From: Clostridia bacterium | Lineage (GTDB): Bacteria > Bacillota > Clostridia > Oscillospirales > CAG-272 | Assembly: GCA_017483125.1 (NCBI GenBank) | Contig: JAFULU010000283.1 | Location: forward strand, 1 to 49,541 | DNA length: 49,541 bases | Direction: 5' to 3' | In this document: in pieces, positions 7,142 to 28,718 of the stretch | How positions within the stretch are numbered: position 1 is the first letter of the stretch | Layout of the letters: the number at the start of each line of letters is the position of its first letter | Notes under the pieces: generated by a model | What the model was told of the DNA's origin: nothing | Seen by the model: the letters and a program-made list of their open reading frames with translations, nothing else | Databases searched by the model: none | Program-made: the position numbers and the translations under genes

Positions 7142-7146
7142 CCTTC

Positions 7147-7246
7147 AGATACAAGTTACAAGATACAAAGATACAAGATAGACAGAAGCCATAGCATATC
7201 TTGTATCTTGTATCTGCCGAGCCTGCTCGGCCGTATCTTGTATCTC
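7147..7246. repeat. B-type palindromic heptamer-array element, (GATACAA)n
   Basis: Left arm AGATACAAGTTACAAGATACAAAGATACAAGATA (7147-7180). Complementary arm ATATCTTGTATCTTGTATCT (7196-7215). GC hairpin GCCGAGCCTGCTCGGC (7216-7231), then CGTATCTTGTATCTC. Confidence 0.85.
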
Positions 7247-7317
7247 AAAAGTCCCCAAGGGGTTGAAAATATGTAAAATTATGCGGTTTATCCGCGATCA
7301 TAAAAGGAGGCACCAAC

Positions 7318-9656: not shown

Positions 9657-9888
9657 GCCATTCCCCGCGCAAACTGCGCGGGGAATGGCTAAATGCAAAA
9701 TGCAAAGTGCAAAATGCAAAATCAAGGAACGAGAGAACAACTGCGCAGGGCTTAACGGAAACCATGTTATTCTTTTGGGGAACAATACTTTTTGGGATAT
9801 TATCCCACAAAATATTACCATAAAATCGGCTTTCGCGTCAGCGAAAGGCTTCCACAATTTTGCATTTTGCATTTTGCCTTTTGCAGTT
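9657..9888. repeat. A-type palindromic heptamer-array element, (AATGCAA)n, preceded by a 14-bp GC hairpin
   Basis: Hairpin GCCATTCCCCGCGC-AAACT-GCGCGGGGAATGGC (9657-9689). Array AAATGCAAAATGCAAAGTGCAAAATGCAAAAT (9691-9722). Unique core. Inverse array ATTTTGCATTTTGCATTTTGCCTTTTGCAG (about 9857-9888). The core is homologous to that of 45278-45531 in the opposite orientation. Confidence 0.85.
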
Positions 9889-9920
9889 TCATACCATTTC
9901 ATTTTTCGGAGGATACATAT

Positions 9921-15029: not shown

Positions 15030-15166
15030 TTCAAATTTGGGTTTATCGAAGAGATACAAGATACGGAGATACAAGATACAAGATATAGAACGGCTGTTGC
15101 CGTAAGGATATTTCATATCTTGTATCGGCCGAGCTTGCTCGGCGTGTATCTTGTAACTTGTATCTC
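15030..15166. repeat. terminal 19-mer plus B-type (GATACAA)n palindromic element
   Basis: TTCAAATTTGGGTTTATCG (15030-15048). Arm GAGATACAAGATACGGAGATACAAGATACAAGATAT (15051-15086). Inverse arm ATATCTTGTATC (15115-15126). GC hairpin GGCCGAGCTTGCTCGGC (15127-15143). Then GTGTATCTTGTAACTTGTATCTC (15144-15166). Confidence 0.85.
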
Positions 15167-15204
15167 GCAGTAAAACTGCAATTTCCAGTTATTCCAATGC
15201 CGAT

Positions 15205-26077: not shown

Positions 26078-27565
26078 ATGACTGTAAGCCGTGTTATCGC
26101 GATCATCGCGACCGCCGATACCATCCGTATTCTTGTTGATTCCCCCATCCCCGCCGACGCCGAGGTGAAGGTCTTTGCCTTCTCCCCCATTCTGGCCGAG
26201 GAGGTGGAGCCTCTGACCGCCCTGACCCCCGCTGTGGAGGGCGATACCCTGACCGTCCCCCGCTTCGCCTGCGGCCGTGACGGCGTGTGCCTGTCCTACG
26301 GCGTGCAAATCGACGACGAGCTGCTGGAGGGCAAGCAGTACGTGGAAGCCATCACCGCATCCCGGCGGGATTTCCCCTACCCTGTGGTGGACACCAAGAA
26401 GGGCCTGCAGGTGGTGGACTACAAGGACGCCAAGGAGCTGGGGGTGCGCCATTCCGCCATCAACGTCAACGAGGGCGATTTCCTCATGCCCGCCTACGAG
26501 GAGGGCAACACCATTGAGTTCGAGCACGACGGGCGGGTGTTCTACTTCCGCAAGTCCCACGTGGAGAGGATGGACGAGACCTTCGTGGGCCTGACCGAGA
26601 TCGGCTGTGTGATCTCCTTCATCCTGCTCAATTCCCCCCACTGGCGGTGCGACATTGACCCCGCCTTCTGGGAGGTCATCAAGCACCCCGCCTACACGGG
26701 GAAGCGTGAGGACGGCACGGGTCTGATCTCGGCCTTCAACCTGGTCACCGAGGAGGGTCTGGCGTACTACCGCGCCTTCATCGCCTTCCTCACCGACCGC
26801 TACACCCGTGAGGACAAGGCATACGGTCGGGTCGTGGGCATGATCGTGAGCAACGAGGTAGACGCGGGCTACATCTGGGCCAACTCGGGCGAGATGACCC
26901 TGGAGGAGTACGTGACCGAGTACGCCACGGCTCTCCGCGTCACCTGGCAGACCGCCGCCTCCATCTACGCCCATATGCGGGTCTTCGTCTCCATCGACCA
27001 CTTCTGGACCGCCGCCATGGACGAAAGCCAGCCTCTGCGCTACTACAAGACCCGTGATATGCTGGTCTTCCTCAACCAGCTGGCCACCGAGCAGGGACAG
27101 ATCCCCTGGCACATCGCCCACCATCCCTACCCCGAGGATCTCAACTACCCCGACTTCTGGAACGACAAGCTGGCCACTCCCGACGACGACGCCCCCATCA
27201 TCACCTTCAAGAACCTGGAGGTACTGGCGCGGTTCATCCACCGTCCCGAGTTCCTGCTGAACGGTGAGCGCCGCCGCATCATCCTGTCGGAGCAGGGCTT
27301 TAACTCCCATTGGACCCCCGAGAGCGAGATCCTCCAGGCCTGTGCCTACGGAAGAGCCTACCGCAAGATCATGGAGATCCCCGAAATTGACTCCTTCATT
27401 CTTCACTCCCACCATGACAACGCCTTCGAGTTCGGTCTGAACCTGGGTCTGTGGCGGAGAAAGAAGGAGGGTCACGGCATGGAGGCTCCCAAGCCCATGT
27501 ACTACGTGTTCAAGGCCATTGATCAAAAGGATGAGAAGGGCGTGTATCACTGGGAGAGATACTGA
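26078..27565 (+). CDS. putative glycoside-hydrolase-like TIM-barrel protein (DUF5722-like)
   Basis: 495-aa cytoplasmic protein. The family assignment is from memory of similar Clostridia proteins (…VSNEVD…, …LSEQGF…), not from a search. Confidence 0.4.
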   Translation: MTVSRVIAIIATADTIRILVDSPIPADAEVKVFAFSPILAEEVEPLTALTPAVEGDTLTVPRFACGRDGVCLSYGVQIDDELLEGKQYVEAITASRRDFPYPVVDTKKGLQVVDYKDAKELGVRHSAINVNEGDFLMPAYEEGNTIEFEHDGRVFYFRKSHVERMDETFVGLTEIGCVISFILLNSPHWRCDIDPAFWEVIKHPAYTGKREDGTGLISAFNLVTEEGLAYYRAFIAFLTDRYTREDKAYGRVVGMIVSNEVDAGYIWANSGEMTLEEYVTEYATALRVTWQTAASIYAHMRVFVSIDHFWTAAMDESQPLRYYKTRDMLVFLNQLATEQGQIPWHIAHHPYPEDLNYPDFWNDKLATPDDDAPIITFKNLEVLARFIHRPEFLLNGERRRIILSEQGFNSHWTPESEILQACAYGRAYRKIMEIPEIDSFILHSHHDNAFEFGLNLGLWRRKKEGHGMEAPKPMYYVFKAIDQKDEKGVYHWERY

Positions 27566-27567
27566 CA

Positions 27568-27645
27568 AAGATACAAGATACAAAGATACAAGATAACGCA
27601 CGCCGCCGCTCTCTATCTTGTATCTTGTATCTCGTATCTTGTAAC
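27568..27645. repeat. B-type (GATACAA)n palindromic element
   Basis: AAAGATACAAGATACAAAGATACAAGATA (27568-27596), a 18-nt GC-rich loop, then ATCTTGTATCTTGTATCTCGTATCTTGTAAC (27615-27645). It starts 3 nt after the stop codon. Confidence 0.85.
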
Positions 27646-27704
27646 TCATACTTCCCCCTCCCCCCGCATAGGATATACCAATTATCCACACGGAGGTCAC
27701 GGGT

Positions 27705-28301: not shown

Positions 28302-28718
28302 ATGACTGATCAGAAAGAGCTGTACGCCTCCCTCATGGCCTCGGCCGTGGCCGCGCGGGAATATTCCTACTCCCCCTACTCGGGCTACCGCGTAGGGGCG
28401 GCTCTCTTGGGGGCCGACGGGAAGGTCTACACGGGCTGTAACATTGAGAACGCGGGCTACACCCCCACCAACTGCGCCGAGCGGACGGCGGTCTTCAAGG
28501 CGGTCAGCGAGGGAGTGCGGGAGTTTACCGCCATCGCCGTGGTGGGTGGCTCGGGGGAGACTCTGGACGCCGCCTGTACCCCCTGCGGGGTATGCCGTCA
28601 GGTGCTGGCGGAGTTCTGCGAGCCCGGGATGCCCGTGATTTTGGGGACACCCGAGGAGATGCGGGTGATGACCTTGGGGGAGCTATTGCCCTTTGCGTTT
28701 ACCAAGAAGAATTTGTAA
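28302..28718 (+). CDS. cdd: cytidine deaminase
   Basis: 138 aa with zinc-binding motifs CAERTA and CTPCGVCRQ. Confidence 0.92.
   Translation: MTDQKELYASLMASAVAAREYSYSPYSGYRVGAALLGADGKVYTGCNIENAGYTPTNCAERTAVFKAVSEGVREFTAIAVVGGSGETLDAACTPCGVCRQVLAEFCEPGMPVILGTPEEMRVMTLGELLPFAFTKKNL

Follow-up and report, generated by a model that had tools for sequence, protein, structure and literature searches.

A gene-less inverted heptamer element between glgB and glgC as a probable fold-back derivative of cassettes enclosing a four-helix-bundle gene

The intervening sequence in the 23S rRNA of Coxiella burnetii carries, in the loop of a 28-bp stem that its terminal inverted repeats make up, an open reading frame (ORF) for S23p (PMC4990558). 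It contains two to three tandem GACAGAT heptamers, their number depending on the strain, RNase III cleaves where the first heptamer repeat begins, and the S23p ORF is decaying in the course of reductive evolution (PMC4990558). A protein of the S23p family from Xanthomonas is cited in the same paper as a pentameric ring. How rRNA intervening sequences originated and what S23p does have been open questions since the 1990s (PMC4990558), and the reason why heptamer tandem repeats are over-represented between bacterial genes is likewise unknown (PMC4692102). Here, we describe a 100-base GATACAA/TTGTATC element at positions 7147-7246 of contig JAFULU010000283.1 from a Clostridia bacterium (49,541 nt; the entire contig is referred to as the window), which is located in the spacer between glgB and glgC. 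We consider it likely that this element is a gene-less fold-back derivative of a cassette in which inverted heptamer arrays enclose a four-helix-bundle gene. The genus joins both of the above questions, as it offers an intact gene (genome G011), a pseudogene at the same site (G005), drifted arms (G044) and dozens of ORF-less copies; G000 denotes the genome holding the window, other G numbers denote genus genomes, C a contig and L an extracted locus. We found no publication that links gene-less heptamer hairpins to PF05635 cassettes. New are the tie of an amplified gene-less family to a gene-bearing relative, a side hairpin specific to one family and the measured replacement of repeat families at the same sites.

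Like the 23S intervening sequences of Coxiella (helix 45) and Leptospira, the full-length relatives of our element belong to the PF05635/TIGR02436 family, hold their ORF in the loop of a long stem of terminal inverted repeats and contain tandem heptamers of strain-variable number (Warrier et al. 2016, PMC4990558). ORF decay is seen in both, as reductive evolution in Coxiella and as a TAA stop in the cassette of G005. Unlike the intervening sequences, the element sits between protein-coding genes rather than in rRNA, and the copy at 7147-7246 is devoid of any ORF. In further contrast to Coxiella, the gene-less form has been amplified to about 45 copies per genome and combines pure heptamer arms with a GC side hairpin. 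Convergent intergenic heptamer pairs as observed here were described for GGGAATC in Xanthomonas campestris and X. axonopodis, with 70-75 pairs per genome; related species share the repeat type but not the repeat length (Rehm et al. 2015, PMC4692102). The Xanthomonas repeats, however, are G-rich and were studied as quadruplex formers; no gene family is named, no embedded GC hairpin is described and no replacement of families by each other at one site, as seen here, is reported (PMC4692102). Our element belongs to this class of inverted heptamer pairs, which is descriptive and implies no mechanism, and its array length varies as well. Abundant intergenic tandem heptamers are also represented by the STRR heptamers of cyanobacteria. 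The abundant intergenic TAACTGA heptamers of Beggiatoaceae, often found near start codons, are nearly all direct (169 direct sets, one indirect), whereas we observed inverted pairs of fixed polarity (MacGregor 2015, PMC4679880). Being short, non-coding, palindromic, multi-copy and tied to a gene-bearing relative, the element finally resembles MITEs (miniature transposable elements with inverted repeats) and the repetitive extragenic palindromic sequences (REP/REPIN) that are associated with REP-associated tyrosine transposases (RAYTs) (PMC3116915). In contrast to these, the enclosed gene is no known transposase, and no target-site duplication, RAYT or movement was found. Assignment as a MITE was rejected: a four-helix-bundle gene is enclosed, the boundaries carry no duplication, and no GATACAA arm pair encloses a gene in G000.

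The element begins 6 nt past the glgB stop codon and ends 71 nt 5' of the glgC start (Table 1), the two genes being identified by Pfam matches of identical genes in strain contigs. Its left arm comprises five GATAC-type cores (AGATAC AAGTTAC AAGATAC AAAGATAC AAGATA), including a GTTAC variant unit and an 8-nt irregular unit, and is the counterpart of the downstream arm in the gene-bearing cassette of G005 (L197). All strings quoted in the earlier note were present at their coordinates, and the module order of 7147-7246 indeed recurs at 15051-15166, again with a GC hairpin. A search for GATACAAGATA with at most one mismatch gave 18 matches in the window against 0.2 expected (0 of 100 shuffles reached 18), all of them at the three loci 7147-7246, 15051-15166 and 27565-27647. 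Either strand, as RNA or single-stranded DNA, folds to a stem of about 34 bp that bears the GC hairpin as side branch, and in the RNA fold the hairpin branches off the main stem at a three-way junction. RNA folds reached z about -7 to -9 and -44 to -51 kcal/mol on both strands. An Rfam scan of the whole window gave no match at the gathering score.

Table 1. Coordinates of the GATACAA elements and adjoining features in the window
Feature	Position	Strand	Sequence or description
glgB stop codon	7139-7141		
glgB element, left arm	7147-7180	+	AGATACAAGTTACAAGATACAAAGATACAAGATA; 34 nt
glgB element, loop	7181-7195	+	GACAGAAGCCATAGC; 15 nt
glgB element, right arm, inner part	7196-7215	+	ATATCTTGTATCTTGTATCT; complementary to 7161-7180
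glgB element, GC side hairpin	7216-7231	+	GCCGAGCCTGCTCGGC; GCCGAG-CCTG-CTCGGC, 16 nt
glgB element, right arm, outer part	7232-7246	+	CGTATCTTGTATCTC; pairs with 7147-7158
glgC start	7318		
Outer 19-mer of second element	15030-15048	+	TTCAAATTTGGGTTTATCG; imperfect partner 15167-15186
Second GATACAA element	15051-15166	+	left arm 15051-15086, 28-nt loop 15087-15114, hairpin in right arm
GC hairpin of second element	15128-15143		within right arm
Third GATACAA element	27565-27647	+	without GC hairpin

PF05635 genes were detected in 22 of the 29 genus genomes, five of them in G000; genes of this family have also been noted within cas operons (PMC3936711). The top-scoring genus genes are framed by inverted heptamer arrays, with a heptamer that differs by lineage: GATACAA in G011 (intact) and G005 (one TAA stop), GTGACAA in G044, AAAATGC in G000, G015 and G011, AATAATG in G043 and AATTGAA in G023. 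For GCATTCT (G017) and AGTGAAG (G041), the downstream array alone was detected and framing is not established. The cassette ORF spans about 116 codons and its products match TIGR02436, 'four helix bundle protein', with E about 1e-33; PF05635/TIGR02436 corresponds to S23p, the protein family of 23S rRNA intervening sequences. Relatives of the cassette proteins in the PDB, 2rld and 2gsc (XCC0516), have five chains each. In G011 (C39), the arrays are placed 10 nt ahead of the ATG and directly behind the stop codon of an intact 116-aa ORF, and the same cassette is found in G005 (C70, L197) as a pseudogene with one TAA stop. The left arm of the G005 cassette contains the hairpin GCCGAGCAAGCTCGGC (GCCGAG…CTCGGC) at a linker, GTTAC units are present in the outer part of its right arm, and its inner end is GATAT-AG. 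Furthermore, the polarity of the arrays relative to the ORF in gene-bearing relatives matches that of the gene-less copies.

Alignment of the G005 cassette without its ORF to the reverse complement of window 7142-7252 gave matches at 90 of 103 aligned positions, with a score of 108.5 compared to 66.5 in the other orientation. The loop of the glgB element, read on the minus strand (ATATGCTATGGCTTCTGTCTATC), agreed with L197 (ATATAGTACGGCTTATGTCTATC) in 19 of 23 positions, in register and gap-free; this short stretch aligns with the cassette leader, the start codon and the first three codons, and the alignment points to a deletion between TATC repeats. Loops of the subclass framed by a 19-mer (see below) matched nucleotides 162-183 of the ORF in 17 of 21 positions, a value reached by 0 of 60 shuffles. 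These loop matches to ORF and leader are suggestive only. A corresponding pair exists for the A-type heptamer. The best-matching PF05635 gene of G000 (C67:3181-3489) lies exactly between AAAATGC and GCATTTT arrays, and its cassette has inner sequences in common with the gene-less A-type copy at window 9691-9889. This was the one case of a gene-sized cargo in G000, none being found between GATACAA arms. Further heptamer families of G000 have gene-bearing members as well, AATAATG in G043 and AGTGAAG in G041, where the array was detected downstream alone. Since each gene lineage has its own heptamer, one architecture is built from different 7-mers.

To place the element in its genome, we turn to G000 as a whole, a metagenome-assembled genome of 3.5 Mb with 58.5% G+C and 98.9% completeness. 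Exact period-7 runs amounted to 113 for AAAATGC (A-type), 44 for AAGATAC, 22 for AATTACG, 14 for AATAATG and 5 for AAGAGTG, and the design of the GATACAA elements is common to the four further families AAAATGC, AATTACG, AATAATG and AAGAGTG. The 45 GATACAA clusters showed the polarity GATACAA…TTGTATC in 43 cases and never the reverse, while two were one-armed (C36:12661 and C38:3172); 42 of the 51 AAAATGC clusters obeyed the same inward rule. The GATACAA lineage is thus present in about 45 copies per genome and lacks an ORF in most of them. Parsing of the 45 loci revealed two types of arm, GATAC aa GATAC (gga/aga/tga/ga or hairpin) GATAC aa GATAC aa GATAT and GATAC aa GTTAC aa GATAC (aaa or hairpin) GATAC aa GATAT. 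Five cores were found in 47 of the 90 arms, many of those copies being mutually related. An 18-mer, GATACAAGATACAAGATA, was detected with at most one mismatch in 19 of the 29 genus genomes, being abundant in ten and not found in ten, so that the arrays are not restricted to the three loci from which the earlier note had started. In 301 genomes sampled evenly across the order, it occurred in G000 and one sister-genus genome only.

The arrays could in principle be independent simple-sequence repeats, born on site by slipped-strand mispairing and snap-back synthesis, with a merely convergent likeness to the cassettes. One-armed arrays would fit such an origin, as would unit numbers that vary between species, at times in both arms together (C274, C273). 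The copies, however, share the position of the GTTAC unit, irregular linkers, the GATAT-AG inner end, the GC hairpin and subfamily loops, and the same non-repeat features recur in the gene-bearing cassette, which renders independent origins very improbable.

The GC hairpin invariably occupied the irregular linker, its orientation to the heptamer being the same throughout, in either arm and in one case double. Between 21 and 23 of the 24 genomic GCCGAG-loop-CTCGGC hairpins with CAAG/CTTG-like loops sit within GATACAA arrays, while the remaining GCCGAG…CTCGGC palindromes of G000 are chance ones within genes; 22 of the 45 GATACAA copies lack the hairpin. It is therefore a side branch peculiar to the GATACAA family rather than a module of the design in general, and the idea of an independent mobile module was rejected on the same grounds. 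About 18 GATACAA copies, and A-type copies as well, are framed by an outer inverted 19-mer, TTCAAATTTGGGTTTATCG. The right-arm flank of the gene-bearing cassettes L195 and L197 (…GTATCT ACCTGCGATAAAAGGAG) resembles the start of the 19-mer partner at window 15167-15186 (…GTATCTC ACCGATAAACTGCAATTTG); judged from this resemblance, the 19-mer frame may have descended from a cassette flank.

To learn how general the framing is, metagenomes were scanned by alignment of the genus proteins; the closest 80 of 588 relatives were kept, 66 of which had at least 120 nt on both sides. A period-7 array was present within 300 nt at 59 of these 66 PF05635 loci, and an inverted pair framed 31 (47%, a figure qualified by the bias of the sample to close relatives of the genus proteins), no two of which shared a heptamer. 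Periods of 5, 6 and 8-11 gave no framing pair around the same genes, compared to 31 for period 7. Among control genes of G000, 7-9% had any array nearby and 1 of 2234 was framed, presumably the C67 gene. The earlier note had suggested a mechanism behind two unrelated 7-mers in one palindromic design; several unrelated 7-mers do share this design by a common cause and not by chance, and period 7 is specific. The arrays at the metagenome genes comprised three to five units, and downstream arrays never exceeded 5.1. The distance between heptamers rose with protein divergence, from 0.6 at 75-90% identity to 1.5 at 65-75% and about 2.8 below (Mantel p = 0.0035). At the purH-purD site, the arms are GATACAA in G011 and G005, while those of G044, whose cassette protein is 78% identical, are GTGACAA with one relic GATACAA unit. 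Heptamers thus drift in concert in both arms, along with the gene, and the statement that the repeats do not look like one drifting sequence family could not be upheld. On the sense strand of the gene, upstream-arm heptamers contained 44% A and 9% C (37 armed PF05635 loci, comprising 31 metagenome loci among L223-L302 and six from the genus), which places an A-rich arm first on both DNA strands. The same A-rich-arm-first polarity was seen in four of the five gene-less families of G000.

Period and polarity could also indicate operator arrays in double-stranded DNA, bound by a ribbon-helix-helix repressor, of which Omega of pSM19035 is an example, or by a four-helix-bundle pentamer, and acting on transcription or chromosome structure instead of RNA. 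The strict 7-bp period, the fixed inward polarity, the approximately five units per arm (three heptads correspond to about two helical turns) and the change of the heptamer along with the adjacent protein would agree with this explanation. On the other hand, no regulon-like pattern emerged, as the copies lie between unrelated genes, mostly in co-directional pairs. The arms, moreover, are always inverted repeats with compensating changes, pointing to hairpin formation, and the sole relative tested works as an RNA stem (PMC4990558). We thus regard binding as operators as unlikely.

Within the glgB-glgC spacer, a terminator or attenuator has to be considered as well, in which the GC hairpin together with the U-rich GUAUCUUGUAUCU would stop or pause the polymerase and the long stem would serve as alternative structure. 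The element starts 6 nt past the glgB stop codon, and a scan for terminator-like structures flagged the GC hairpin 7216-7231 followed by CGTATCTTGT. This was the only match, though, against 0.6 expected in shuffles, and the whole element is followed by CAAAAGTCCCC, without a U-tract directly behind the GC-rich stem, in line with the earlier view that it does not qualify as a canonical intrinsic terminator. In 5 of 13 co-directional contexts the hairpin is located in the 5' arm, without a U-rich tail behind it, 22 of 45 copies have no hairpin, and one strain (L180) lacks it at this very site. According to a crude self-trained gene caller, 27 GATACAA copies lie between tandem (co-directional), 5 between convergent and 3 between divergent genes, that is, without enrichment between convergent genes, and the copies often begin 3-31 nt past the upstream stop codon. 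Orientation to the host genes was unbiased, whether judged by the hairpin-bearing arm (3' arm 8, 5' arm 5) or by alignment to the cassette template (same 10, opposite 13). A terminator at this position appears quite improbable.

We rather propose that the element may act as a processing site in RNA. Upon transcription of glgB-glgC, the arms are predicted to pair into the stem of about 34 bp with its side hairpin. RNase III, whose gene (rnc) is present in G000, probably cuts this stem by analogy with the heptamer-containing stem of the Coxiella intervening sequence, for which cleavage was demonstrated. Such a cut would part the glgB and glgC messages and leave each with a structured end. The four-helix-bundle pentamer may recognise heptad arrays of up to five units. 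Hairpins of this kind inside operons are predicted to be RNA processing sites, which can be tested.

Comparison of orthologous sites revealed how the elements change. The glgB-glgC element is kept in G005 and G010 with one to two point changes and an unchanged number of units, while other species of the genus have other hairpin repeats or short spacers at this position. We also compared strains by contigs encoding identical GlgC. In L180, the GC hairpin and two units are missing owing to a 30-nt indel between GTATCT repeats. L182 (ENA ERZ25021427, 2x coverage) has one unit fewer and a different upstream gene, as it joins the cytidine deaminase gene (window 28302-28718) directly to the GATACAA element and glgC, either by rearrangement via repeat copies or as an assembly chimera. 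The 15-nt loop is identical in L180 and L182. Array length and hairpin thus vary between strains, which the earlier note had suggested examining for slipped-strand variation. Three further contigs with identical GlgC carry GC-rich mini-hairpins in place of the GATACAA element, and one contig of this GC-rich type bears an additional nested insert of 82 nt.

Across 25 orthologous sites of G000 and G005, with flank identities mostly of 88-98% and a few lower, the GATACAA element was retained at seven, three of which differ in unit number (C273, C274 and C36_2886); at C273 and C274 both arms grow together. GATACAA copies change through slippage of units as well as through deletions that join short repeats. 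At 15 of the 25 sites another repeat family was found in place of GATACAA, namely GC-rich hairpins with or without the 19-mer, CATATCGAG arrays with a small hairpin, the AAAATGC type or the AATTCGT type; one of the remaining sites is nearly empty and two hold inserted genes. The third element of the window may serve as an example, since its site in G005 is occupied by a CATATCGAG-type array. Its outermost unit, GAGATAC, falls in the final codons (Arg-Tyr) of the upstream DUF5722 gene (window 27551-27564); the same residues are encoded by CGTTAT in G005, so that the arm extends into the gene via synonymous codons. Three further strain contigs are identical at this locus, save for one T-to-C change in one of them. 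As dispersed repeats occupy just about 28% of the G000 spacers that measure 40 nt or more, the shared occupancy of spots is far from independent. Either only certain spacers tolerate inserts, or resident elements are themselves targeted by newcomers. The purH-purD spacer measures 15-25 nt in five outgroup species and harbors about a dozen different inserts in the repeat-rich clade. In these gut Clostridia, occupants of spacers are exchanged at a much higher pace than the genes on either side diverge, a point of relevance to annotation, strain typing and assembly breaks in metagenome-assembled genomes.

Dispersed, intergenic and palindromic elements that occupy the above share of spacers and are at times nested in one another (L183) call to mind REP/REPIN sequences, where hairpins serve as single-strand DNA substrates that are copied by a RAYT, an IS200/IS605-like Y1 transposase. 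A search for RAYT/Y1 transposases (Y1_Tnp, PF01797), however, yielded no match in the 98.9%-complete G000, while controls matched in 6 of 14 genomes; PDDEXK_3 (PF13366) gave no match in G000 either. In addition, there is no GTAG-type tag, the stems consist of tandem heptamers rather than one imperfect palindrome, and the cognate gene encodes a four-helix-bundle protein and no transposase. The REP/REPIN explanation is thus largely refuted and retains next to no probability.

Several observations nevertheless weigh against the derivation of the gene-less elements from cassettes, in addition to the sampling bias mentioned above. The loop matches span just 15-21 nt of non-array sequence, and many other loops are without a match. 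Proteins at least 78% identical to the GATACAA type were found only in G011, G005 (pseudogene) and G044, always at purH-purD, and G000 itself has no GATACAA-type gene; as the genus genomes are metagenome-assembled, they may be incomplete, which bears on such absences. Since the gene is present in three genomes and the arrays are abundant in ten, amplification does not visibly depend on the cognate gene. Among 51 heptamer elements of G000 between co-directional genes, stability favored the antisense over the sense fold in 35 cases and the reverse in 12 (Wilcoxon p = 0.007), which gives no hint of selection for the strongest hairpin in the host message. No target-site duplication was seen at purH-purD, glgB-glgC or the other boundaries compared, there was no clean filled/empty pair among near-identical strains (glgC and 27565 strain contigs), and we found neither an enzyme for movement nor an instance of movement.

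Origin from gene-bearing cassettes remains the explanation that we favor, and a bolder extension of it may be put forward, albeit as a speculation that we ourselves think doubtful. The four-helix-bundle pentamer would act as a sequence-specific reader of five tandem heptads in single-stranded nucleic acid, with lineages of protein and heptamer co-evolving, and the arrays would arise as repeats are added, in the manner of telomeres, to both 3' ends of a broken spacer, giving rise to the A-rich-first polarity. If this were true, the cassettes and their gene-less offspring would constitute a new kind of mobile element, and the same reading would account for bacterial heptamer repeats generally as well as for rRNA intervening sequences. 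The comparable set within the genus offers testable pairs, each protein versus its own heptamer array.

GATACAA arrays were also encountered in Acidobacteriota, Gammaproteobacteria and Dehalococcoidia, as part of degenerate NNNNCAA heptads. At L079, L105, L120 and L123 (Dehalococcoidia, Acidobacteriota), such heptads form longer inverted arms that are headed by GATACAA units, for example GATACAA TAATCAA GAAACAA TAACCAA, and that enclose cargos of 100-130 nt. One cross-phylum GATACAA pair (L124) frames a 124-aa four-helix-bundle ORF; as its protein is far from that of G011, we do not claim transfer. Locus L066 (Patescibacteria contig JAHJJO010000063.1) was left aside as a fold-back contig, probably an artefact of assembly, since the same 1252-aa ORF is present on both strands about a central point.

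The four other PF05635 genes of G000 (C287:3995-4250, C49:1386-1640, C29:9588-9840 and C153; L191-L194) have palindromes ahead of them which do not frame the gene. These are built from units of about 21 nt, each consisting of a short motif (GTGAAG, GTGATG or GTGAAAT) and a variable mini-hairpin, and similar CATATCGAG-plus-hairpin arrays are found in G005 at sites of G000 GATACAA elements. The GATACAA arms at C40:6576 of G000, which bear two GC hairpins, resemble an intermediate form. The purH-purD hot spot (G000 C11:4560-4985; L309-L335) hosts two kinds of four-helix-bundle cassette and a small AT-rich membrane ORF, and further occupants are motif-plus-hairpin arrays, GC/AT hairpin composites and a 1.2-kb gene. 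Between the glgB element and glgC, a small hairpin, GCGGTTTATCCGC, is located at window 7283-7297, immediately 5' of the glgC ribosome-binding site. It is conserved genus-wide with compensating changes (GCGGTTCTACCGC, GCGAATCCCTCGGATTCGC, GGCGGCAAAGCCGCC), while all sequence 5' of it has been replaced.

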